A stretch of 27,306 nt of DNA, from assembly GCA_028864955.1 (NCBI GenBank), contig JAGWLE010000001.1:1-27306 (forward strand), read 5' to 3'. The notes under the pieces were generated by a model. It searched no databases. It was given only the letters and a program-made list of their open reading frames with translations, and was not told where the DNA came from. Both the position numbers and the translations under genes were made by a program. The DNA is from Patescibacteria group bacterium (lineage in GTDB: Bacteria > Patescibacteriota > Minisyncoccia > Phycocordibacterales > PALSA-1337). Positions 3,193-20,318 of the stretch are shown here, in pieces; the first letter of the stretch is position 1; the number at the start of each line of letters is the position of its first letter.

Positions 3193-5136
3193 TTATTTTG
3201 TCACTGTTTCCTGCCCTTGGGCATACTGCGGATCCGTACTGAATCGCGTGGTCAAAGGCGCTTGGGTGCTCTGGAGGGTCGTATTCGTAAAGGTGTCTGT
3301 GCCGCTGAGCGTCGCTTGATTGACTAGTGTCGGGATCGAACCTGCTTGAGTGACCGAGGGCGTATACGATATCTGGAAAGCGACCTCGCGCCGGCGCATT
3401 GAATCGAGCGTATACGTGCCGACATTGCCCACCTGCCAAGTAACTGTGCCGGTATTCGGGTCATAATTGACCTGTTCATTCGGCGGACTGACCTGTCCCA
3501 GCCACTTCACATATGTCGGCAAAGTTGCCGTCATGACGCCGTTAGTCACCGGATTGGCGGTATTGTCGACATCCCAGATAACCGTGTACGTTGTCGGCTG
3601 TTCGACTTTTGGCGGCACGAGACCGGTGTTTGCAAACGGACCGATGCTCCTGACGACGCGGCCGGATAGCACGAGGTTGCTGGCGATCTTGGTCGTACGG
3701 GTTACGGCGTCCGTCACGCTTTGCGGCACGTTGGCCTCCTGCGCGCGATTGCCGCTGACATTCACGTTGAAGACCAGCGTCGGATTGACCAGAGGCTGCG
3801 AAGCCGTGCCGAGATCCCTGGGCGTGATTGAAAATGTCAGGTGCCCGCTCGCGCCGGCGGCCGCGGTGCCAAGTTCCGGATTTGTTTGCGTGTTCCACGT
3901 AATGGTATTCGCGCCGGAATCAAAAAATCCCTGGTCCGGTTGGACAGTCGTCTTGTCGTAGGCCGTGCCGGAAAGATTGGCAGTGATGACCATATTGGAT
4001 ACGGCCACCGACAGATTATTGAACCAGTCAATCTCCACCTTCTCGCTGTTATCAAACGAACCGACATGGTCGCCGCTGCCGGTATCATTATCGATATTGA
4101 CGTTCAAGGAAACAAAAGGCTTCTGGATCGTCATATCCTGTTCGACATTCATGTATTCGGAACCGATAGTCGAAGGACTGCCGGGATTCTGCGTGCCGAC
4201 ACTGAAATGGAAGACGCGCAGGTCGGTATCTTCACCGGTCAAACGGCCATGTAGGACGATCTTGCGTTCTCCGCCAGGCGGAATATCGCCGATATTCCAG
4301 GTCGACGTGTCAGTGTATGTCGGCAAACTCGATGACAGCAGAGTGTAACCGAACGGATAGGTTCCTTTGACGAGGATATTGTGAAGCGTCTGGGCGGAAT
4401 TCGATTTGAGATCGACTGTCAGATCAAATTCCTGTCCGGACGTGATCTGATTATACGAAGATACTGTCACATTAAGCGGCGACGAGTTAATAAGCACGTC
4501 GTATGATTGCGTCTTTGTAAACACCGCCGATGACCCTTTGACGCTGTATGTCAACGTAACATTTATCTCCTTTTGCAGATTTTCCTCGCCGAATATGATG
4601 GCACTAACCGTCTGGTGGACACTGCCGCCGGCCGGGATCGTGCCGAGCACTTTGTCGATGTTTTGAAGGGGCGTGCCGGAATTGCTGGGATCGGCGCTAC
4701 CCTGCGGGAAAGCGATTGCCATGTCGGTCAGTTCAAGATCGACGTTATTTTTGTTCTGAACGGTGATATTGAACGTCTCCGGCACGCCGGCTGGAATAGA
4801 TACTGGCCCGCTGATCTGGATATCGATATTGTTAGCGGAGATAAGGTTGCCGCCGTTGAAGAATATGTACGCGCCAACGCCGACCGCCAAAATGCAGAAG
4901 ATGGCGGACATGATGAGAAATTTGGCGGCAAATGACATGGGGCGTCGGTCTTCGTACGCTTGGTTGAGCTCCTTGGGACGAACATCGTCCTCGGCCGGAT
5001 GCTCCCAGTCAGACTTGAGACTGGTCTCTTCGTTGCTATAACGAAGCTTCCGGCGTGATCGGATATCCGGAGCGTTTCGGGAATAGAGCGATGTATTGAG
5101 CTCCTCGATGCGGCTTTTGTCCTCTTCAGATGGCAC
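3193..5136 (-). CDS. Single-pass membrane protein with tandem extracellular Ig-like (DUF11/CARDB-like) beta-sandwich domains
   Basis: 647 aa: charged N-terminal tail, one TM helix (FLIMSAIFCILAVGVGAYIFF), then Thr/Ser/Asn-rich beta repeats such as TTYTVIWDVDNTAN. GTG start 7 nt after TGGTATACT. Confidence 0.75.
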   Translation of the reverse strand: MPSEEDKSRIEELNTSLYSRNAPDIRSRRKLRYSNEETSLKSDWEHPAEDDVRPKELNQAYEDRRPMSFAAKFLIMSAIFCILAVGVGAYIFFNGGNLISANNIDIQISGPVSIPAGVPETFNITVQNKNNVDLELTDMAIAFPQGSADPSNSGTPLQNIDKVLGTIPAGGSVHQTVSAIIFGEENLQKEINVTLTYSVKGSSAVFTKTQSYDVLINSSPLNVTVSSYNQITSGQEFDLTVDLKSNSAQTLHNILVKGTYPFGYTLLSSSLPTYTDTSTWNIGDIPPGGERKIVLHGRLTGEDTDLRVFHFSVGTQNPGSPSTIGSEYMNVEQDMTIQKPFVSLNVNIDNDTGSGDHVGSFDNSEKVEIDWFNNLSVAVSNMVITANLSGTAYDKTTVQPDQGFFDSGANTITWNTQTNPELGTAAAGASGHLTFSITPRDLGTASQPLVNPTLVFNVNVSGNRAQEANVPQSVTDAVTRTTKIASNLVLSGRVVRSIGPFANTGLVPPKVEQPTTYTVIWDVDNTANPVTNGVMTATLPTYVKWLGQVSPPNEQVNYDPNTGTVTWQVGNVGTYTLDSMRRREVAFQISYTPSVTQAGSIPTLVNQATLSGTDTFTNTTLQSTQAPLTTRFSTDPQYAQGQETVTK

Positions 5137-5883: not shown

Positions 5884-8800
5884 TTAGGCTGCGAGCCCTA
5901 GCGTCGCCCCCTCTTCGATAGACGTCAGATTCGTCGCCTTTTTTATTTCTGCCTCAAATTTATTCACAAGTGACTTCAATTCGGCCGGAACGACAAGCAC
6001 GGCTATGTCACTAACCTTGAGGCCTTTCTCCTTGCGCAGATCCTGAATCTTGCGCAAAAGCTCGCGAAGATCACCTTCTTCCTTGAGAGCCGCTGAAATG
6101 TCCGTATCAAGCTTGTCTTCGGTTGCGCCAAATACGATCTCCTTGACATTAAGCTCATCTTTGATGATTTCGCCAAGACTGATCACGGCTGAAGTGGTTG
6201 AGAATGAAGCGAGCGGCTGGCGCACATTGATCTTGGCCGCATTGCGCGCTTCGAGTCCTTTGGAGGAAATCTGCCGCGCGATTTCCATTTCTTTGAGAAG
6301 TTTTTCGTCGACGGCACCGGCTGCCGGCCACTCTGTCAGGTGCACAGACTCCAGCTCTCCGCCGACTTCCTTGTAGGCGTATTCGGAAAAGAACGGCGTA
6401 AATGGCGCCATGACTTTGGCGAGAGTAAGGAGAATCCAACGTGTTGTATTCAGAGCCGACTGCTTGTCCGCTTCATCATCTCCCTTGAATCGGTCGCGCG
6501 AACGGCGCAGATACCACTGCGATAGGTCTGCCACAAAATCGCGAATGGCGCGCGTCGGCTCGAGGAAAACGTAGGCATCCATGCCTTTCGTGACGGCTTC
6601 GATCAGCTGATTCATTCGCGAAACGATCCAGCGATCAAGCACATTCTGCGATTCTGGTTGCACCGTGTCACTTGTGACTTTTGACTTCTGACTTTTGACT
6701 TTTGACTTCTGACTTGGCTCTTGTGACTTGTGACTTTCAACCTTCGGCCTATGTTCATAAATCTTGTAGAAACTTGTCACATTCAATGCGAGATTGAAGA
6801 CTTTCTTGACGACTTCATCAACGGTCTTCTCGTCAAAATTCTTTGATTCTCCCGGCTGATTGACACTGTACATCCAGAAGCGCAGCGCATCAGCACCATA
6901 CTTGTCCATCATCTCGAATGGATTGACGACGTTGCCCAACGACTTGGACATCTTTTTGCCATCGGCGTCGAGGATGTGGCCGAGGCAGATGACATTCTTG
7001 TACGCCTTGCCCATACCCATGAGCGTGCCGACCGCGTGCAAGGTGTAAAACCAGCCGCGTGTCTGGTCGATGGCTTCAGAGATAAAGTCCGCCGGATATG
7101 CCAGTTTCTGCTCATGACCGAAGATCTTGCTGAGCAATCCGTGTGACTCTTGATTTTCGACTTTCGACTCAAATGGATAGTGATCCTGCGCAAATGGCAT
7201 GGCGCCGCTGTCGAACCAGACATCCATGACTTCCTTGACCCGCTTCATGTCGCCGCCGCAGCTACAGGCGAGCTTCGTGTCATCGATATACGGCCGATGG
7301 AGATCGAGCTCATATTCCGGGTTATGCGGCACGATCCTGAAGTCGACCTTCTTGTAATGGCCTTTCTGAATATAGTTGTTGAGTTCATAGGCGATGGTTT
7401 GCTCCCTATCCCAGCCGTGCGCGGCTGCGATAAGCATCATCGTCGGACTGCCGTGTGAAACGATCAGGATCTTCTTGCCAGAATACTTTGATTCGATGTC
7501 ATAGAGGAAATCACCCATGCGCTTCTTCACCTCGGCGTATGTTTCAACGCCGACCGGCGATTTGCTAAATCGGTAGATGTCCATGGGAAATTCCTTCATG
7601 AATCCCTCGAGAGGCTTGCCGTTCCATTTGCCGAGAGCCATCTCCTGCAGACGATCGTCTGTTATAAATTGTTCATCAGCAAGCCCGAACATTTTCTGTA
7701 CGATACGAGCCGATTCCTGCGTGCGCATAAACGGCGAAGCGAAGATGAGATCTATGCCTTCACCTTTGAGCGGCGCCAGATGTTCGGCGATCTTTTGTTT
7801 GCCGACTTCAGTCAGATGATTCGAGACGTTTGCATCGGAATTGAGCAGGCCTTTCGCATTGAATTCGGCCTCACCGTGTCGCATGATCCAGTACTCATTC
7901 TTGGGCTTGCGCGCGATCTCTTCGACGGAACCGACAACACGGCGCACGCCGCACTTTTCGCACAACCACACAGGCAACGGCGTACCCCAATAGCGCTCTC
8001 GTGAAATGGCCCAATCCTTGACCTCGCGCAACCACTCGCCAAAGCGGCCTTCTTTGATATGTTCAGGCTCCCAGTGGATGCCTTCGTTTTCCCTGACCAG
8101 CTTGTCGCGAAGTTTGGACATGGCGATGTACCAGCTGTCGCGAGCGAAATAGATGAGCGGCGTATGACAGCGCCAACAGAACGGATACGTATGCTCATAT
8201 TTTTCCTTGTAGAACAGGAGTCCACGATACGCCAGATCTTTGATGATCTCCACCGCCACCGCCTCGTCATCCTTCACGAACTTCCCCGCCAAGAATCCAG
8301 CTTCTTTCTTGAATGTGCCGTCGTCGTTCACCAGGTGATACTTTGGCAAGCCGACGCGCGTGCCGAGCTCGAAGTCGTCCTGACCATACATCGGCGCCAT
8401 ATGCACGATGCCCGTGCCATCTTCTGTGGTCACGAAATCACCGGCATAGACTTTGAATGCATTCGTGAGTTTTTCTTTTTCTGCACCACTCACATTGTCT
8501 TTCAAGAATGGGTAGAGAGGCTCGTATTCGGTACCAATCAGGTCTTTGCCCTTGAATGTTTCAACAATTGATGGATTCTTGAAATGACCTCTAACAGATT
8601 CAAATCTGTCTTTAGCAAGAATATAGAATTGAGACATCGTCTCAGAAACATTAGGTGTCAATCCATTTAACTCCTCCTTTACAGGCTCACCAATAAACAA
8701 ATCTTTAATTTTGACATACTCAATCTTTTCATTGACGGCCAAACCGACATTTCCAGGCAATGTCCACGGCGTCGTCGTCCACGCAAGGAGATACGTGTCG

Positions 8801-9492
8801 CCAGGTTTTTCACTTTCGACTTTTGACTTTTGGCTTTTGACTTTTAACTTCACATACACCGACAAATCCTTGACCGTCTCATACCCCTGTGCCAATTCAT
8901 GCGACGACAACGCCGTACCGCAGCGCGGGCACCAGGGCACGACTTTATAGTCCTTATAGAGGAGCTTCTCGTGATCGACGTGCTTGACGATGTTCCAGAC
9001 TGATTCGATGAAGTTTGGCTTATATGTGACATAGGCATTCTTCAAATCAACCCAAAATGCCATACGTTCGGTGAGTTCTTCCCATTCGCGTACATACGTC
9101 CAAACAATCTCTTTGCACTTGGAATTAAACTCCTCGATACCGTATGCGTCAATTTCTTTTTTTGACCTAATGCCAAGCTCCTTCTCTGCCTGGAGTTCGA
9201 CGGGTAATCCGTGAGTATCCCAGCCTCCGCGACGACGTACGCGATAGCCGCGCATGGTCTTATAGCGCGGAATAGCATCCTTGAAGGCGCGCGATTCAAA
9301 ATGACCGATATGCGGCCGCCCATTAGCGCCTGGCGGTCCCTCGTAAAAAACAAACTCGCCCTTTGGCGCGGGCTTATTCAGGGACTTTTCAAAAATGCCC
9401 TGCTCTTTCCAAAATGCAAGAATAGACTCCTCACGTTCTGCATGAGGAGATTTTGGATGTTCTGTCTTTTTCGAGTCAGCCTGATCTGCCAT
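5884..9492 (-). CDS. ileS: Isoleucine--tRNA ligase, type 2 (IleRS2), with inserted histidine phosphatase domain
   Basis: GPPGANGRPHIGH, GWDTHGLPVE, WTTTPWTLPGN, GTGIVHMAP, DWAISRERYWGTP, VMDVWFDSG, EAIDQTRGWFY and KMSKS. C-terminal EG.LRELLRKIQDLRKEKGL.VSD is characteristic of type 2. Confidence 0.97.
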   Translation of the reverse strand: MADQADSKKTEHPKSPHAEREESILAFWKEQGIFEKSLNKPAPKGEFVFYEGPPGANGRPHIGHFESRAFKDAIPRYKTMRGYRVRRRGGWDTHGLPVELQAEKELGIRSKKEIDAYGIEEFNSKCKEIVWTYVREWEELTERMAFWVDLKNAYVTYKPNFIESVWNIVKHVDHEKLLYKDYKVVPWCPRCGTALSSHELAQGYETVKDLSVYVKLKVKSQKSKVESEKPGDTYLLAWTTTPWTLPGNVGLAVNEKIEYVKIKDLFIGEPVKEELNGLTPNVSETMSQFYILAKDRFESVRGHFKNPSIVETFKGKDLIGTEYEPLYPFLKDNVSGAEKEKLTNAFKVYAGDFVTTEDGTGIVHMAPMYGQDDFELGTRVGLPKYHLVNDDGTFKKEAGFLAGKFVKDDEAVAVEIIKDLAYRGLLFYKEKYEHTYPFCWRCHTPLIYFARDSWYIAMSKLRDKLVRENEGIHWEPEHIKEGRFGEWLREVKDWAISRERYWGTPLPVWLCEKCGVRRVVGSVEEIARKPKNEYWIMRHGEAEFNAKGLLNSDANVSNHLTEVGKQKIAEHLAPLKGEGIDLIFASPFMRTQESARIVQKMFGLADEQFITDDRLQEMALGKWNGKPLEGFMKEFPMDIYRFSKSPVGVETYAEVKKRMGDFLYDIESKYSGKKILIVSHGSPTMMLIAAAHGWDREQTIAYELNNYIQKGHYKKVDFRIVPHNPEYELDLHRPYIDDTKLACSCGGDMKRVKEVMDVWFDSGAMPFAQDHYPFESKVENQESHGLLSKIFGHEQKLAYPADFISEAIDQTRGWFYTLHAVGTLMGMGKAYKNVICLGHILDADGKKMSKSLGNVVNPFEMMDKYGADALRFWMYSVNQPGESKNFDEKTVDEVVKKVFNLALNVTSFYKIYEHRPKVESHKSQEPSQKSKVKSQKSKVTSDTVQPESQNVLDRWIVSRMNQLIEAVTKGMDAYVFLEPTRAIRDFVADLSQWYLRRSRDRFKGDDEADKQSALNTTRWILLTLAKVMAPFTPFFSEYAYKEVGGELESVHLTEWPAAGAVDEKLLKEMEIARQISSKGLEARNAAKINVRQPLASFSTTSAVISLGEIIKDELNVKEIVFGATEDKLDTDISAALKEEGDLRELLRKIQDLRKEKGLKVSDIAVLVVPAELKSLVNKFEAEIKKATNLTSIEEGATLGLAA
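6668..6737. repeat. In-frame heptamer tandem array (TGACTTt/c/g x10 on plus strand) inside ileS
   Basis: tcacttg tgacttt tgacttc tgacttt tgacttt tgacttc tgacttg gctcttg tgacttg tgacttt; encodes KVESHKSQEPSQKSKVKSQKSKVTSD. Confidence 0.95.
7144..7171. repeat. Short in-frame heptamer array (4 units) inside ileS
   Basis: tgactct tgatttt cgacttt cgactca; encodes ESKVENQESH. Confidence 0.7.
7340..7900 (-). other. Histidine phosphatase (phosphoglycerate-mutase-like) domain inserted in IleRS (approximate boundaries)
   Basis: YWIMRHGEAEFN (RHG), ASPFMRTQESA, DDRLQEMALGKWNG, ETYAEVKKR and ILIVSHGS. Lies between IleRS segments CEKC..GSVEEI and DLHRPYID..CSCGG. Confidence 0.92.
8810..8851. repeat. In-frame heptamer tandem array (6 units, 42 nt) inside ileS
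   Basis: tcacttt cgacttt tgacttt tggcttt tgacttt taacttc; encodes KLKVKSQKSKVESE. Confidence 0.92.
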
Positions 9493-11649: not shown

Positions 11650-12882
11650 CTACTTTGCCTGGCGCAAAATCCTGTCGATCATGCCGGCGATCCTTTCCAT
11701 GTCTTTTTCCTTGCCACCCCTGGTCGTCTCCGCCGCCGTGCCCAAACGAATACCTGAAGGATCGGCAGGAGGTCGCGTATCGAACGGAATAGCGTTCTTA
11801 TTGACAATGATGCCCTTTTGCTCGAGCCGCCGGCTGGCCTCGGCGCCGGCTATGCCGCCAACCCCCCGATCATTATTGCGGCCGTCGTTCCAGGTATCGA
11901 CAAGCACGAGATGCGAATCGGTGCCGCCGGAGATCAGCCGCCAACCGCGGTCTTGAAGCGTTTCCGCCAGCGCTTTTGCATTCTTCACGACTTGAGCGGC
12001 GTACTTTTTGAAAGTTGGGCTGGCCGCTTCACGGAGCGCCACCGCCACCGCCGCAATCTGATTTTCGTGCGGACCGCCCTGCAGACCGGGAAAAACCGCT
12101 TTGTCGATCTTCTTCCATAGCTCTCGCGAGTCTTTGCGTGAAAATATGAGCGCCGAGCGCGGCCCCCGCAGAGTCTTGTGCGTCGTGGTAGTCACGACAT
12201 CGGCATAATCAAAAGGCGACGGATACGCCCCACCGGCCACCAAGCCGGCGATATGAGACATGTCGACCATCATCAGCGACTCGGCTGACGTCGCCACTTC
12301 CTTGCACCTCTGCCAGTCGATGACGCGCGGGTAGGCCGTGTAGCCAAAAACGATGATCGTCGGCCGCTCTTTCATGGCTTGTTCGCGCAAAATATCGTAG
12401 TTCAACATCTCTGTCGTTTGATCGAGGCCATAGGGCACTTGCGTCCAGAATTTGCCCGAGGCCGAGACTTTTTGACCGTGCGTCAGATGTCCGCCCTGAT
12501 CGAGCGCCATGCCCATGATCTTGCCGGCAGGCGTCGGCCGACCATCGGCCGCGGCGCCGGCGCGTGGCACCAGCGCCATATACACGGCCGTATTCGCCGG
12601 CGAGCCGGAGAGCGGCTGTACATTGACATGCCACTCGGCCGGATTGAGCCCGAAGAGTTTGAGGGCGCGCACCTGACAGAGCTTCTCGAGCTTATCAACA
12701 ATCTGATTGCCGCCATAATAGCGCTTATCGGGATAGCCTTCGGAATATTTGTTGGTAAATTCGGAGCCTAAAGCTTCCAGCACATCGCTGGATACGTAAT
12801 TTTCCGAAGCAATCAGATTGACGACTTTTTTCTGGCGCCTCTTTTCAGCTTCGATAAGTTTTTTGACTTGAATATCTTTCAT
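11650..12882 (-). CDS. glyA: Serine hydroxymethyltransferase
   Basis: LIASENY, NKYSEGYP.KRYYGG, VQPLSGSPAN, GGHLTHG, PLP-lysine motif TTTTHKTLRGPR, FPGLQGGPH and SGIRLGT. Confidence 0.98.
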   Translation of the reverse strand: MKDIQVKKLIEAEKRRQKKVVNLIASENYVSSDVLEALGSEFTNKYSEGYPDKRYYGGNQIVDKLEKLCQVRALKLFGLNPAEWHVNVQPLSGSPANTAVYMALVPRAGAAADGRPTPAGKIMGMALDQGGHLTHGQKVSASGKFWTQVPYGLDQTTEMLNYDILREQAMKERPTIIVFGYTAYPRVIDWQRCKEVATSAESLMMVDMSHIAGLVAGGAYPSPFDYADVVTTTTHKTLRGPRSALIFSRKDSRELWKKIDKAVFPGLQGGPHENQIAAVAVALREAASPTFKKYAAQVVKNAKALAETLQDRGWRLISGGTDSHLVLVDTWNDGRNNDRGVGGIAGAEASRRLEQKGIIVNKNAIPFDTRPPADPSGIRLGTAAETTRGGKEKDMERIAGMIDRILRQAK

Positions 12883-12915: not shown

Positions 12916-13899
12916 TTATTTCCTGTCCTTCTCATCGAAGCCGCCAGCCACCGTCATTTTTGCCTTGAGGACCGGATGAGGATCATAATCCTCGAGTTTG
13001 ACCATGTCTGGCCGGAAGCTGGCCAAGTCTTTGACCTCATCGGACAAGACGAGCCGGGGAAACGGCTTGGGAATACGCCTGATCTGTTCCCTGACCTGCG
13101 GAATATGATCTTCGTATATGTGCGCGTCGCCAAGCGTGTGGATGAATTCGCCTGGTTCGTAACCGCAGATCTTGGCCACGATCATGGTTAGTGCCGCGTA
13201 ACTGGCGATATTGAAGGGCACGCCCAGGAACATGTCGCAGGAACGCTGATACAAGAGGCAGGATAATTTGTTGCCGGCAACGTTGAAATGGAAGAGGATA
13301 TGGCAGAGTGGGAACGACAATGCCTCACCCGGCTTGGCCATGGCATAGAGGTATTGCGGATTCCAGGCGGACAAGATCGCGTGTTTGCGTTCCGGGAAAT
13401 TCTTGAGCGTATCCACGACCCAGGCCAACTGGTCAATCTTGCGGCCGTCGGCGGCCGGCCAGGCACGCCACTGTTCGCCGTAAATGCGCGGCAATTCGCC
13501 GTGAGCCGCGGCAAAATCGGTGTCTGTGCGGATCTTTTCCACGAATTCCTCGAGAGTGAGCGGCGGCAATTCGCCTGTATCAGCCTTCTTTTTATAGATC
13601 TTGTAGGGATAATCGTTCCAAATAGGCACCTTATGGTCGACGAGATATTTGATATTGGTCTGACCTGACATGAACCAGTAGAGTTCATGCATGATGCTGT
13701 TCCATGGCACTTTTTTGGTGGTGAGCAGCGGGAATCCTTGGGAAAGATCAAATCTCATCTGTCTGCCAAAGACGCTGGTCAGTCCGGTGCCGGTATTATG
13801 ATCATGCTTCAAAACGCCGTGATCGAGAATATCCCGCAGAAGATCAAGGTACTGGTACTCCGGATGCGAACGGCCCGTGTTATTGTGTGTCTTGTTCAT
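12916..13899 (-). CDS. thyA: Thymidylate synthase (ThyA family), divergent phosphate-binding residues
   Basis: FGRQMRFDLSQGFPLLTTKK, HELYWF, YGEQWR, SAWNP, catalytic PLCH, YQRSCDMFLGVPFNIASY and GDAHIY. Confidence 0.95.
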   Translation of the reverse strand: MNKTHNNTGRSHPEYQYLDLLRDILDHGVLKHDHNTGTGLTSVFGRQMRFDLSQGFPLLTTKKVPWNSIMHELYWFMSGQTNIKYLVDHKVPIWNDYPYKIYKKKADTGELPPLTLEEFVEKIRTDTDFAAAHGELPRIYGEQWRAWPAADGRKIDQLAWVVDTLKNFPERKHAILSAWNPQYLYAMAKPGEALSFPLCHILFHFNVAGNKLSCLLYQRSCDMFLGVPFNIASYAALTMIVAKICGYEPGEFIHTLGDAHIYEDHIPQVREQIRRIPKPFPRLVLSDEVKDLASFRPDMVKLEDYDPHPVLKAKMTVAGGFDEKDRK

Positions 13900-13964: not shown

Positions 13965-14567
13965 TTATTTCTTGCGGCTGGATGACTTATGGGACATTTT
14001 GACGGCGCCGGTACGTCTGGTTTCCTCTTCCTTTGGATCGACGAAATGCTGCCAGTCGCGATCATGGTAGCGGCCAGTGACCTTGTAGTCTTTTTGCGGC
14101 ACATCTGATAATTCGGAAAAAAGAATCTGCCCGATGCGCATGCCCGGCCGCAAAATGATGGGAATATGGTTGAGATTGGCGAGCTCGAACGTGATATTCA
14201 AAAAATGGCCCGGATTGATGATGCCGGCAGTGTTGTGAATAATGAGGCCCAGCCGGGCCAAACTGCTCTTGCCGGACAGATGCACGAGGTATTTATCTGA
14301 GCCGAAATAGTCGATAGATGTGCCGAGCACGCTGACTCCCGGATGAAGGACAAACCTGCCGCCTTCGGGAATGATGATCTCCTTGGTCTCCGGAAAAATC
14401 TTCATAACCGGATCTATAGCGGTCGTGGATTCGGTATTGCTGATGATGAATTTGTGACCAAGGAGGATATCGTAACTGGCCGGTTGTAGACGATCCTCGT
14501 CGAATGAGTGGATGACGATGTCACCTTTTTCCAAAGCTTTCTTAATATCGCGATCGACGAGATACAT
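13965..14567 (-). CDS. dcd: dCTP deaminase
   Basis: LQPASYDILLG, FVLHPG, GKSSLARLGLIIHNTAG, TFELAN (catalytic Glu), PGMRIGQ and Y...GRY. Confidence 0.93.
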   Translation of the reverse strand: MYLVDRDIKKALEKGDIVIHSFDEDRLQPASYDILLGHKFIISNTESTTAIDPVMKIFPETKEIIIPEGGRFVLHPGVSVLGTSIDYFGSDKYLVHLSGKSSLARLGLIIHNTAGIINPGHFLNITFELANLNHIPIILRPGMRIGQILFSELSDVPQKDYKVTGRYHDRDWQHFVDPKEEETRRTGAVKMSHKSSSRKK

Positions 14568-14583
14568 GGCGGTGATGATGCTG

Positions 14584-15264
14584 TTATTCTATAGTAAACG
14601 TCTTCTCCGTTCCATAGTACTCCTGCCAATGGGAATTGTAATGGGCGAACATCCTTTCCAGGCGATCTTGCGGCAATTCAGACAGGCCAAGAACATTCAT
14701 GACGTTCGCGAGTTCCCGCCTGATATCATCCAGTCTGCTCTGATCCTCGGTCACGCGCTCGAATTCCGCCAGATATCCGTAACCGGCATTGCGGTCGATG
14801 CAGACGTGCATGTCCTCGGCCGCATACTCCTGCCGCTCGCGCGACCACTTGGCTTGATATGTGCAACCGGCGTCGAGCAACACCGTATCGAGTTCGTCCA
14901 GTGTTTTTTCAACGGGCACCTCGAATTCCATGCGCTTGACGCCGTTTGAACTGGTATCGTCCCCGACAGAGGCCTTCATAACCAACAGAACCTGGTTGTC
15001 GGTCTGGCGAGACCGGAGCGAAATCTTGGTGCCGCGAGTCACGATCTCTTCACACCGAGATCTCTGATCGGCCGGAATAATGTCCGCCAAGGCTCGGCGT
15101 AGAGGCTCCAGATCCGCCGGCAAATTGAAATAATGATTGAGCTGCCGGCCCGCGCTGATCATCTTGATGCCGGGAAATCGCTTGGAGAGATCGCGCTTGA
15201 GCTTCTCGGCGTTCTTCTTGGAGCCAAGCAGCGTCTTGATTTCAACCTCATACGAGTGCTTCAT
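14584..15264 (-). CDS. CYTH / triphosphate tunnel metalloenzyme family protein
   Basis: ExExK motif (YEVEIK), QLNHYF, LRSR, KRMEFE, KWSRERQEY, ID...GYGYLAEFE. Start moved to the ATG at 15264 (AAAGGA upstream) because the longer ORF overlaps the divergent folA. Confidence 0.85.
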   Translation of the reverse strand: MKHSYEVEIKTLLGSKKNAEKLKRDLSKRFPGIKMISAGRQLNHYFNLPADLEPLRRALADIIPADQRSRCEEIVTRGTKISLRSRQTDNQVLLVMKASVGDDTSSNGVKRMEFEVPVEKTLDELDTVLLDAGCTYQAKWSRERQEYAAEDMHVCIDRNAGYGYLAEFERVTEDQSRLDDIRRELANVMNVLGLSELPQDRLERMFAHYNSHWQEYYGTEKTFTIE

Positions 15265-15289: not shown

Positions 15290-15317
15290 AGTATAATGTT
15301 CCTACAGTCGTTTACAA
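15290..15317 (-). promoter_or_regulatory. Promoter TTGTAA-N16-TATACT for CYTH-dcd-thyA-glyA, overlapping a plus-strand TATAAT facing folA
   Basis: Minus -35 at 15312-15317 and -10 at 15290-15295; plus-strand TATAAT at 15292-15297. Confidence 0.6.
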
Positions 15318-15342: not shown

Positions 15343-15885
15343 ATGAAATGTTTCATTATCGCCGCCCTGACCGCCGACGGCTATATCGCCAAGGATGAGC
15401 GCCATCCGGCGTTCTGGAGCAGTAAAGAAGACAAGAAGCGTTTTGTGGAACTGACCAAGCGAGCCGGCGTCGTGGTCATGGGCTCGACGACATTCGCTAC
15501 CCTGCCGCGACCGCTCAAGGAACGCGTCAACATCGTCTATTCGCGGACAAAGACGTTTGAGGGCGCGGAGTCGACAGAGAAGGATCCAAAGGCGCTCCTG
15601 GCGGATCTGGAAATCCGCGGTTTCAAGGAAGTCGCTATCTGCGGCGGCGCCCAGGTATACACCATGTTCATGAAGGCCGGCGTTGTCGACCAGCTGTACC
15701 TCACCGTCGAGCCGCTGGTATTCGGCAGCGGCGTGCGATTATTCAATGACGACATGCTTTACCAACTCAAACTCATGAATTCGAGCGTCACCGAGAATGG
15801 CTCGGTCATGCTCGAATACGCGGTGCATCACGGACCGCAAAAAACCGAGTCAAGCGGCGTGCTCGTCGAGGAGAGAACTATATAG
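15343..15885 (+). CDS. folA: Dihydrofolate reductase
   Basis: IAALTADGYIA, W...ED...F, VVMGSTTF..LPRPL..RVNIVYSR, ICGGAQVY..F and LYLTV. Confidence 0.93.
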   Translation: MKCFIIAALTADGYIAKDERHPAFWSSKEDKKRFVELTKRAGVVVMGSTTFATLPRPLKERVNIVYSRTKTFEGAESTEKDPKALLADLEIRGFKEVAICGGAQVYTMFMKAGVVDQLYLTVEPLVFGSGVRLFNDDMLYQLKLMNSSVTENGSVMLEYAVHHGPQKTESSGVLVEERTI

Positions 15886-17365: not shown

Positions 17366-17902
17366 CTAGTGGAACTCATACCTTTCGGCATACGTGTTCG
17401 GCCGGCAGGCCGGCGTTGACGCCCTGTGGAAATAGTGTCTCTGCAGAGAGTCGGCCACGGCCAAGGCATAGCCCCGCGGACTGAAATTCTCCCGTAGAAA
17501 ATACATGTATTCCGTGACACACTGGTTGCGATCGGCGACCAGCTCGATTGGATTCTCGGCCGGCGAGAAAACATGATAGAGGAAAACAGCAAGCGGCAGA
17601 CGAATGCCAGCCGACAGCCGCGATGGTCGCACGTCCAGGCGCAAACGGGGGTGGAAACGATCAACGTCGGCGATAACCAAGGCTACCGCCGTGCCATCGT
17701 TGACCCATTCATGGCCGGCCTGGCCAGAAATCAAGCCGGGATACGGTTCAACAGCTTCTATCGTGAAGCCGCTGATCGACATGAGCCTCCCGTCATCGCT
17801 GCCGGAAAGCTCGCGTTGAAGTATGCCGAGAAATTCACCGATCTGCCCGGCTCCGTTACCTGCCGTCGTAGCGCCGGCATATACATATAGTTTTTTTCTC
17901 AT
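17366..17902 (-). CDS. Hypothetical protein (178 aa)
   Basis: ORF bracketed by its own promoter and terminator. No recognisable family; faint nucleoside-deoxyribosyltransferase-like topology only. Confidence 0.6.
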   Translation of the reverse strand: MRKKLYVYAGATTAGNGAGQIGEFLGILQRELSGSDDGRLMSISGFTIEAVEPYPGLISGQAGHEWVNDGTAVALVIADVDRFHPRLRLDVRPSRLSAGIRLPLAVFLYHVFSPAENPIELVADRNQCVTEYMYFLRENFSPRGYALAVADSLQRHYFHRASTPACRPNTYAERYEFH

Positions 17903-18841: not shown

Positions 18842-19702
18842 CTAGAGATACAAATCCAGCAAATTCTCGAAAAGAGACACGACCGTCATGGGTCCAACGC
18901 CGCCAGGCACCGGCGTGATGGCAGCCACGATGTTCCTGACTGCCTCAAAATCAACATCACCGACAAGTTTCCTGCCCTCGATCTCGTCATCAAGCTTGTC
19001 GCCTAAAACGGTATTTATGCCGACATCGATGATGGTTTGTCCGGTCCGAACATGCTCTTTGCCAACCAAGCCCGGCTTGCCGGCGGCAGCGATAACGATA
19101 TCCGCGGCGGCAGTGATCCTCGACAAATCGGGCGTCTGACTATGACAGACTGTGACTGTGGCATTCTCGGCGAGGCACATCGCCATGATCGGCTTGCCGA
19201 CGAGCATGGAGCGGCCGATGACGGCGGCTTTTGCGCCGGAGAGCGGTATGCCATTTTGAGCGAGCAGCGTACGGATGCCGCGGGCCGTCGCCGGCATGAT
19301 GGCTCCCCTTTTTCCCTCGAGCCATTCCTTGACGCGTCTCGAGGTCAAAGCATCGACATCTTTCCGCGGATCGATCGCCTCGATCATCGCCGTCCGATCG
19401 ATGCCCGGCGGCAACGGCAATTGCACGATCAGCCCGTGAATAGCTTCATCGGCATTGCATGCCTCGATCACCGTCCGGAGGTCGGCTTGGCTGATCGTCT
19501 CGCTGACGTGGATATGCTTCACAGCCACGCCTATCTTGGCCGCGCATGATTTCTTGGCCTTGATGAAAGCAGTCGAATCAGGCCGATCGCCGGCCTGGAT
19601 GATCGCCAGCACTGGCGGTCGCGAAAGCGCCTTGACGCGTTCAGCCAACGTCGGCATGAGCGCGTCGCGGAGAGCGCGACCATCGATAATATGCGCATTC
19701 AT
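18842..19702 (-). CDS. folD: Bifunctional methylenetetrahydrofolate dehydrogenase/cyclohydrolase
   Basis: IIDGRAL, HGLIVQLPLP, IDPRKDVD, PATARGI..LL, VIGRSMLVGKP, VIDVG-like IIDVGIN, LVGDVDF and ITPVPGGVGPMTV. Confidence 0.96.
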   Translation of the reverse strand: MNAHIIDGRALRDALMPTLAERVKALSRPPVLAIIQAGDRPDSTAFIKAKKSCAAKIGVAVKHIHVSETISQADLRTVIEACNADEAIHGLIVQLPLPPGIDRTAMIEAIDPRKDVDALTSRRVKEWLEGKRGAIMPATARGIRTLLAQNGIPLSGAKAAVIGRSMLVGKPIMAMCLAENATVTVCHSQTPDLSRITAAADIVIAAAGKPGLVGKEHVRTGQTIIDVGINTVLGDKLDDEIEGRKLVGDVDFEAVRNIVAAITPVPGGVGPMTVVSLFENLLDLYL

Positions 19703-19763: not shown

Positions 19764-19781
19764 GTGGCAAGAATTTTGTTT

Positions 19782-20318
19782 ATGGACAACTCATCGAAGC
19801 ACGTCCGTCATATCCGCTTGCGAGAACGCAGGCACGGATACATGTATCTCACGCCGCACAGGCTCGTGCCTGATCCTGCATTCTTGGGCGAACTTGAACT
19901 CCGTCACAGAGACAGCTTTGTTCGCCTGTATTTCGATCTCTTTGAATCAGCTGCACCCTTCCGTTATACAGTCCGCACGTATCTCGACGAAGGCCGGACA
20001 TGCCTACGCCTGCAAGCCTTGATCGACTACGGATCGGGCTGCATAGAAGTAACCGGTCCTGTAGACGAAAAATTGACGCCGCGTGAAGTGCTGTATCTCC
20101 GCATCTTTCACACGCTCGCTTCCCTGGCTATCTTCGACGAACGACAGCCGTGGCAACGATACTGTCCGGAGGAGAAAAAAGCCAAGGTCTACATTATCCG
20201 AGAATGGACGCTTGAATCCTTCGCCAGCGCGATTCCCTTGAAGCAGGGGCTCTCATCCATCAATGGACGCTTCAAGATGGGGCTTCTGGTCCTTTTACTT
20301 AAGCCGCTCCTCGGCTAG
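19782..20318 (+). CDS. Hypothetical protein (178 aa)
   Basis: Fills the folD-methyltransferase gap and has an upstream promoter. Start moved to ATG 19782 because GTG 19764 abuts the -10 box. No recognisable motif. Confidence 0.55.
   Translation: MDNSSKHVRHIRLRERRHGYMYLTPHRLVPDPAFLGELELRHRDSFVRLYFDLFESAAPFRYTVRTYLDEGRTCLRLQALIDYGSGCIEVTGPVDEKLTPREVLYLRIFHTLASLAIFDERQPWQRYCPEEKKAKVYIIREWTLESFASAIPLKQGLSSINGRFKMGLLVLLLKPLLG

Follow-up and report, generated by a model that had tools for sequence, protein, structure and literature searches.

The window analysed here, a stretch of 27,306 nucleotides of contig JAGWLE010000001.1 from a Patescibacteria group bacterium (GCA_028864955.1), carries on its minus strand a gene coding for a long-form CYTH protein of 226 amino acids, which is followed head to tail by dcd, thyA, and glyA with gaps of 16, 65, and 33 nt. 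The open reading frame of the CYTH gene starts with the ATG at 15264 and ends with the TAA at 14586–14584, and the N-terminus of the protein reads MKHSYEVEIK. A longer version of the gene starting at ATG 15405 (273 aa) was rejected, as all homologues begin at the position of 15264 and as the extension overlaps the start of the divergently oriented gene folA; the intergenic region between folA and the CYTH gene is 78 bp long. The first-pass annotation had described the CYTH gene as the first gene of a thymidylate operon located 16 nt before dcd, and the coordinates of the open reading frames as well as direct reading of the sequence confirm this arrangement. The features of the locus are listed below. 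Conservation is given for an alignment of 31 orthologues (A1) and for an alignment of divergent members with 25–37% identity (A2).

14584..15264, minus strand: CYTH/TTM gene (226 aa, long form), identified by open reading frame, Pfam CYTH, AF2, and Foldseek; candidate dUTP phosphohydrolase
15290..15317, minus strand: promoter-like site TTGTAA-16 nt-TATACT, sigma-70-like, upstream of the CYTH start, from a consensus scan only
15235..15249, minus strand: ExExK motif (E6, E8, K10), metal and triphosphate site, invariant in A1 and A2
15031..15123, minus strand: two-helix insert, residues 48–78, between strands 2 and 3, with AF2 helices 53–60 and 65–77
14587..14679, minus strand: C-terminal plug-helix region and tail, residues 196–226, a family hallmark with invariant aromatic residues
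14568..14583, minus strand: spacer of 16 nt separating the CYTH stop from the start of dcd (ATG at 14567), read directly from the sequence
13965..14567, minus strand: dcd, N-type dCTP deaminase (TIGR02274, 136 bits, cut-off 92.8)
14214..14216, minus strand: Asn118 codon of Dcd at the position of the motif III aspartate (D119 of M. tuberculosis Dcd:dut, D128 of E. coli Dcd, D90/D83 of Dut)
12916..13899, minus strand: thyA, folate-dependent thymidylate synthase (Pfam E 1.4e-100; TIGR03284, 372 bits)
11650..12882, minus strand: glyA, serine hydroxymethyltransferase (Pfam E 7.6e-151)
15343..15885, plus strand: folA, divergent gene of the DHFR family (Pfam DHFR_1 E 1.8e-18, RibD_C E 6.1e-18)
18842..19702, minus strand: folD, about 3 kb away in the wider one-carbon neighbourhood (Pfam THF_DHG_CYH, THF_DHG_CYH_C)

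The product of folA matches DHFR_1 and RibD_C equally well, with E about 1e-18 in both cases, and stays far below all NCBIfam cut-offs for DHFR. Elsewhere in the window, a gene at 5884–9492 (minus strand) codes for a class-I aminoacyl-tRNA synthetase of 1202 aa (tRNA-synt_1 and Anticodon_1), which has a histidine-phosphatase domain (His_Phos_1, residues 535–706, E 5e-32) inserted into its catalytic core. Three further open reading frames, at 3193–5136 (minus strand, 647 aa), 17366–17902 (minus strand, 178 aa), and 19764–20318 (plus strand, 184 aa), had no match in the Pfam search.

Motifs and predicted structure of the CYTH protein

The protein matches the Pfam family CYTH (PF01928) with 43.9 bits at a cut-off of 23.2 (E 3e-11). 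It had been noted from the sequence that the TTM signature is complete; this is borne out by the 31 orthologues, in which the catalytic motifs E6-x-E8-x-K10, R84, K97, R111, E113, K139, R142, R144, D157, and E167-x-E169 are all present and invariant. R86 and E115 are nearly invariant in the same alignment, and further invariant positions are Q41, N43, H44, Y45, F46, D126, K139-W-S-R142, and N159-A-G-Y-G163. Even in the members with only 25–37% identity, the metal- and phosphate-binding residues are without exception conserved, and no stretch of this divergent alignment was conserved enough to scan collections with. When grouped at 50% identity, the family falls into 130 clusters (E<=1e-30), and its named members are Patescibacteria, that is, Paceibacterota, Taylorbacteria, Adlerbacteria, and Moraniibacteriota. 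Shorter CYTH genes coding for 177–189 aa form a different subfamily with variable neighbours and were kept apart from the long form.

The AF2 model, predicted with a multiple sequence alignment of the 31 orthologues, has eight strands (pLDDT 88.3, pTM 0.82). A Foldseek search of this predicted structure against the PDB yielded 99 matches at E<=1e-3 led by TTM proteins, the best being SaTTM, PH1819/PH1012, and the class IV adenylate cyclase (AC-IV) of Yersinia pestis. SaTTM (Saci_0718, PDB 7NS8-7NSF) and PH1819/PH1012 (2EEN, 2DC4) are CYTH triphosphatases of the archaeal type and are matched with E values of 8e-13 to 2e-11 and a target-normalised TM score of 0.70–0.79. The eight-stranded tunnel, the motifs ExExK, RxR, and ExE, and the C-terminal plug helix are common to all of them, although the sequence identity is only 18–20% (16–20% when the top PDB matches including the Yersinia cyclase are considered). 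In contrast to SaTTM and the Pyrococcus proteins, the CYTH protein has a helical insert of 30 residues, an N-H-Y version of the DxY motif in strand 2, and a strongly conserved aromatic plug helix with its tail. SaTTM itself prefers inorganic triphosphate (PPPi) and has no thymidylate context (PMC8233210).

The extra helical insert pointed out in the first-pass annotation is real: residues 48–166 of PH1819 align to residues 78–198 of the query, which leaves about 30 additional residues containing both predicted helices, and the insert is also absent from the alignment with the Yersinia cyclase. It is the least conserved segment of the protein and is about 10 residues shorter in two orthologues (L017, L026). 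Given this poor conservation, the insert is unlikely to carry the substrate specificity. Much better conserved is the C-terminal region with the pattern ELxQDRLERMFxxYNxxWxxYYGTxKTF, which had been overlooked before. Here E196, L197, Q199, R201, R204, M205, F206, Y209, N210, W213, Y216, Y217, T219, and F223 are invariant among the 31 orthologues; in the divergent members M205 stays invariant, with Y209 and W213 almost so. The model places helices at residues 199–211 and 213–217, followed by a tail of low confidence.

The Yersinia pestis enzyme CyaB (2FJT/3N0Y) has the same fold and is similar to the query at a comparable sequence level. Class IV adenylate cyclases are recognized by the extension HFxxxxExExK and by a small residue in place of the central arginine of the xRxR motif in strand 3, and thiamine triphosphatases (ThTPases) by the motif W/YxRxR, whose aromatic residue stacks on the thiazolium (Vogt et al. 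2021, PMC8233210). In the query only the five residues MKHSY precede E6 and the HF motif is missing, the N-termini of the orthologues being equally short. Moreover, R84 and R86 are both retained, and the score with the cyaB equivalog TIGR00318 (39.2 bits) falls short of the cut-off of 57.95. At the position of the aromatic residue the query has S82 (S-L-R-S-R), and the residue is small in all orthologues. Thus, by these criteria the protein is neither a class IV adenylate cyclase nor a thiamine triphosphatase, as the HF motif and the W/YxRxR aromatic are absent and the central arginine is kept. When compared with the dUTPase-family profiles PF00692 and PF22769 the CYTH protein gave no match; of all genes in the genome, dcd alone matches them.

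Gene neighbourhood of the long-form CYTH genes

Using the proteins of the window, we scored 13 loci on genome contigs, 19 loci from a phylum sample of 400 genomes, 80 metagenome loci, and 9 loci from an order sample, which comprises 121 genomes of the window's order from about 120 genera. A thyA or dcd gene lies within 2.5 kb of the CYTH gene at 12/13 genome-contig loci, 19/19 phylum loci, 67/71 metagenome loci, and 9/9 order loci. The phylum count becomes 18/18 if one locus (L034) from an unpublished genome (G154) is left out, which does not change the outcome. The five loci lacking both genes cover the upstream flank only, as the contig ends 2–125 nt past the CYTH gene. Altogether, at some 110 orthologous loci thyA and/or dcd adjoin the CYTH gene wherever the flank suffices.

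This linkage survives four gene orders. The clade of the window has the order folA<CYTH>dcd>thyA>glyA; in five other GTDB families the order is dcd>CYTH>thyA>folA, with stop/start overlaps of 1–4 nt, or CYTH>thyA. One protein (P0124) is an in-frame fusion of Dcd and CYTH. Three other candidates for fusions (P0121–P0123) were discarded, as their N-terminal 180–220 residues are junk resulting from over-extended reading frames called across the divergent folA region. Variable surroundings among the orthologues would have spoken against the (d)NTP substrate, most simply dUTP, suggested in the first-pass annotation; what we find instead is that the adjacency to thyA or dcd is preserved across rearrangements.

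Three metagenome loci are organized differently. At L079 (4702–6643), L092 (4688–7345), and L133 the CYTH gene is followed by a cytidylyltransferase-like gene, a gene for a CDA-family deaminase of 280–292 aa with an N-terminal extension, and a HIT gene, after which folA and thyA follow; Dcd is absent. The deaminase might use dCMP or dCTP as substrate.

Short-form CYTH genes are found in the gene clusters dCMP deaminase-kinase-CYTH-dut-thyA-folA (L037) and thyX-CYTH-tmk (L038). At a further locus (L040, 966–2028) a short-form gene adjoins the gene of a CobA/BtuR corrinoid adenosyltransferase. This type of enzyme releases inorganic triphosphate, and the neighbour fits a role of the short-form protein as a triphosphatase. 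The only relative on a viral contig (L189, 663–1337, IMG/VR) is full length and has 39% identity; it is located between genes for an HNH endonuclease and an AAA ATPase and close to genes for Fic, a T4-type RNA ligase, and a P-loop kinase, that is, in a context not related to thymidylate. A small P-loop kinase (AAA_17/AAA_18) recurs in the thymidylate clusters of several genomes (L037 743–1294, L143, L094, L142) and is possibly a deoxynucleoside or dNMP kinase.

Distribution of dUTPase and the motif III residue of Dcd

The genome of the window has a size of 643 kb and is 87% complete. Within this assembly dut, MazG, dimeric dUTPase, and dCMP deaminase were not found, nor was a ribonucleotide reductase (PF02867 or NRDD), and the genome has Ndk as well as a Tmk-like open reading frame that stays below the threshold (23 bits). 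In the order sample, where Dut was called with TIGR00576 at E<=1e-18, none of the 10 genomes with CYTH has a canonical Dut compared to 62 of the 111 other genomes (Fisher p=5e-4 with kinship ignored; since the genomes are related, this and the p-value given below overstate the case). The phylum sample yields the same picture: the dut cut-off is reached by 0/20 genomes with CYTH and by 136/381 others, and the weak hits in the former are their Dcd genes. When both samples are considered, canonical dut was not found in 29 of the 30 CYTH-bearing genomes, whereas roughly half of their relatives have none, and all 30 carry a Dcd-like gene. The exception, G068, combines in one cluster CYTH, thyA, and a gene for a Dut-like protein of 144 aa with a convergent D-type dcd.

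In the order sample the slot between nusG-rplK and glyA-argS is occupied by different gene sets. Ten genomes have folA<CYTH>dcd>thyA at this place, three have dcd-thyX-tmk-dut (G453, G481, G509), three have other variants containing Dut (G420, G479, G482), and one has dcd alone (G435). Among them G482 belongs to the window's own family; it has Dut, ThyA, dCMP deaminase, and DHFR and possesses neither Dcd nor CYTH. In the order sample CYTH coincides not only with the absence of Dut but also with the presence of ThyA and DHFR instead of ThyX. Thus, both signals are partly confounded, and G482 demonstrates that ThyA and DHFR can work without CYTH. An obligate accessory role of CYTH for ThyA was dismissed on the basis of this genome and 12 other genomes with ThyA and Dut and without CYTH.

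As the best PDB match of the window Dcd is the bifunctional enzyme of M. tuberculosis, Dcd itself could be thought to suffice as dUTPase; alignment at the level of single residues reversed this view. When aligned to Dcd:dut of M. tuberculosis and to Dcd of E. coli, the Dcd of the window retains the deaminase residues S101/S102, R105, and E128, and its motif III reads I-N-P-G, whereas both reference proteins have I-D-P-G. In dUTPases the aspartate of motif III positions the hydrolytic water. For Dut of M. tuberculosis it has been reported that the mutation D83N leaves 0.0002 of the catalytic efficiency while ligand binding is unchanged (PMC5519681). By analogy to this mutant we infer that the Dcd of the window clade would be unable to hydrolyse dUTP. 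The I-N-P-G motif is found in the clade at 13/13 genome-contig loci (the window among them), 9/9 loci of the order sample, and 67/67 loci from metagenomes; Asn118 thus stands in the window Dcd and in all members of its clade at the place of the aspartate expected for a bifunctional Dcd. It should be added that this argument on mono- or bifunctionality uses the motif III aspartate as its single marker.

The N-type Dcd occurs in 13 genomes of the order sample, accompanied by CYTH in 10 of them and by Dut in 3, and in no case is it without either (p=5e-5, again ignoring kinship). In 24 genomes of this sample a Dcd-like gene is present and both Dut and CYTH are lacking; the Dcd-like proteins of these genomes are of the D or Q type, and one D-type class directly beside thyA retains the aspartate and the glutamate, as would be expected for a bifunctional enzyme. 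Thus, Dut or CYTH always accompanies a Dcd for which no hydrolysis of dUTP is to be expected, and this is the pattern predicted by non-orthologous displacement. In the other CYTH clades Dcd keeps the aspartate, as does the monofunctional E. coli Dcd; for these clades the need for a separate hydrolase cannot therefore be argued from the sequence.

Two further groups of proteins were observed. Q-type Dcd-like proteins (F-M/V-Q-P-G) are encoded at L153, L166, and L186 (G402, G480, G503); two of the genomes have neither Dut nor a long CYTH, and one has Dut. About a dozen genomes of the order sample code for a dUTPase-like protein of 211–252 aa with the motif G-I-I-D-S-G-Y and lacking the deaminase glutamate, and its gene directly adjoins a lower-scoring gene of the ThyA family (170–186 bits; L155, L156, L162, L163, L169, L170, L177, L180, L181, L183–L185, L187). 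Together, these two proteins may be a thymidylate or hydroxymethylase pair of a second type.

Possible role in thymidylate synthesis

The first-pass annotation had suggested that the context points to a (d)NTP, most simply dUTP, as substrate of the CYTH protein. This suggestion is strengthened by the conserved linkage, the missing dut, the shared slot, and the asparagine of Dcd, from which we still infer rather than demonstrate the substrate. On the basis of the gene context, the phyletic distribution, and the residue found in the partner Dcd, it is somewhat more probable than not that the long-form CYTH protein hydrolyses dUTP and supplies dUMP for thymidylate synthesis. The chances appear about even for the wider proposal that it represents one more class of dUTP hydrolases, unrelated in structure and built on the TTM fold, which has displaced Dut in many lineages of Patescibacteria and which partners, and perhaps binds, a Dcd devoid of the hydrolytic aspartate. 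As a dCMP-type deaminase takes the place of Dcd at three CYTH loci, dUTP as the only substrate may be too narrow a view.

In the proposed pathway Dcd would convert dCTP to dUTP by deamination, the Dcd of the window clade having lost the aspartate with which the dUTPase fold would hydrolyse dUTP. The dUTP would be bound in the basic tunnel of the CYTH protein, with the deoxyuridine probably placed against the conserved aromatic end at the plug helix, and would be hydrolysed with the help of metals held by the glutamates of ExExK and ExE; dCTP is perhaps accepted too. The resulting dUMP would pass to ThyA, and the folate would be recycled by DHFR, GlyA, and FolD. The dUMP could arise by cleavage between the α and β phosphates with release of pyrophosphate or by stepwise loss of two phosphates. 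CyaB cleaves the α–β bond of its nucleotide, which is the bond to be broken for the formation of dUMP and pyrophosphate. Phosphatase-type TTM enzymes attack the γ phosphate, SaTTM for example turning ATP into ADP, and bind the organic moiety towards the plug helix (PMC8233210). By comparison with them, the conserved aromatic plug helix of the CYTH protein suggests the phosphatase-type orientation with dUDP as first product. As an attack at the γ phosphate gives dUDP, the formation of dUMP would then depend on another hydrolytic step or on binding in the orientation of the cyclases, water being the nucleophile.

The role proposed for the CYTH protein, removal of dUTP and supply of dUMP for thymidylate synthase, is the one known from trimeric Dut (PF00692) and from Dcd:dut, the bifunctional enzyme of M. 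tuberculosis and M. jannaschii. Dut shares the operon slot with CYTH and has a mutually exclusive distribution, which is a likeness of role and not of family membership, as fold and chemistry of both proteins are unrelated. Dut is a jelly-roll trimer in which the aspartate of motif III activates the water. Pyrimidine dNTPs are likewise cleared by enzymes other than Dut, namely by pyrophosphohydrolases of the MazG type and by phage dCTPase/dUTPases. Our literature search yielded no paper linking CYTH or TTM proteins to dUTP or to thymidylate operons; the nearest is a speculation of one line that CYTH triphosphatases of phages might have a dUTPase-like role (Iyer et al. 2021, PMC7824862). That remark on the CYTH genes of jumbo phages comes without a family, a context, or a test, whereas here a cellular family is fixed in a thymidylate operon.

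Other explanations have to be weighed against hydrolysis of dUTP. The protein could be a phosphohydrolase that acts on pyrimidine dNTPs, mainly on one other than dUTP, for example forming dCMP from dCTP to feed a dCMP deaminase or balancing the pools of dCTP, dUTP, and dTTP like the dCTPase-dUTPases of phages. The three loci with a CDA-family deaminase in place of Dcd, the short-form genes next to dCMP deaminase and dut or between thyX and tmk, and the combination of CYTH with a Dut-like gene in G068 would suit this explanation. We nevertheless regard it as unlikely, as every one of the 30 CYTH-bearing genomes has a Dcd-like gene and 29 do so without Dut, as the N-type Dcd still needs some enzyme removing dUTP, and as the search for a dCMP deaminase in the window's genome (87% complete) gave no hit. 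Slightly less probable still is a generic activity as inorganic triphosphatase, pyrophosphatase, or γ-phosphatase of NTPs, which would be part of the operon for removal of pyrophosphate or triphosphate or simply by inheritance, the dUMP then being provided by Dcd or by an unknown enzyme. The variable neighbours of the short-form relatives in the same phylum, one of which is a triphosphate-releasing corrinoid adenosyltransferase, speak for such an activity, as do the preference of SaTTM, the nearest solved relative, for PPPi (PMC8233210) and the apparent lack of a family-I pyrophosphatase in the genome of the window, which is 87% complete. In the order sample, however, this pyrophosphatase is present in 7/10 genomes with CYTH and in 74/111 others; this spread lacks any complementarity and implies that CYTH is not a substitute for it. 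Moreover, a generic activity fits poorly with a linkage kept through four gene orders and a fusion, and it leaves unexplained why Dut is excluded and why the N-type Dcd never occurs alone.

A physical association of the CYTH protein with its neighbours is suggested by the stop/start overlaps with dcd and thyA and by the Dcd-CYTH fusion, and the protein could accordingly be a partner that regulates Dcd or ThyA or lacks catalytic activity, such as a subunit sensing dTTP or dUTP. This is quite improbable, as the metal- and phosphate-binding residues are invariant down to 25–37% identity, which would be anticipated for an active enzyme. Least credible of all, and hardly to be reckoned with, is the assignment as class IV adenylate cyclase, which is made by several annotation sources (JGI names such as ‘adenylate cyclase class IV’) and agrees with the Yersinia enzyme being among the top structural matches; HFxxxxExExK is missing and the central arginine of RxR is kept when judged by the published criteria (PMC8233210), TIGR00318 reaches 39 of the 58 bits needed, and a search of the window's genome (87% complete) for cNMP-binding domains gave none.

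The need to remove dUTP and to supply dUMP is close to universal. Nevertheless, many prokaryotic genomes are without any known dUTPase (PMC5122711). If the long-form CYTH protein indeed hydrolyses dUTP, it would represent a new enzyme class in thymidylate metabolism and the first role of TTM enzymes in central DNA-precursor metabolism, and it would explain part of the puzzle of life without dUTPase. One of the many CYTH subfamilies automatically annotated as adenylate cyclase would thereby obtain a defined physiological substrate, and the replacement of Dut would be a clean case of non-orthologous gene displacement that is coupled to the disappearance of a catalytic residue from the partner enzyme. 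For the Patescibacteria, a very large and uncultured group, metabolic reconstructions would have to be corrected in this respect.
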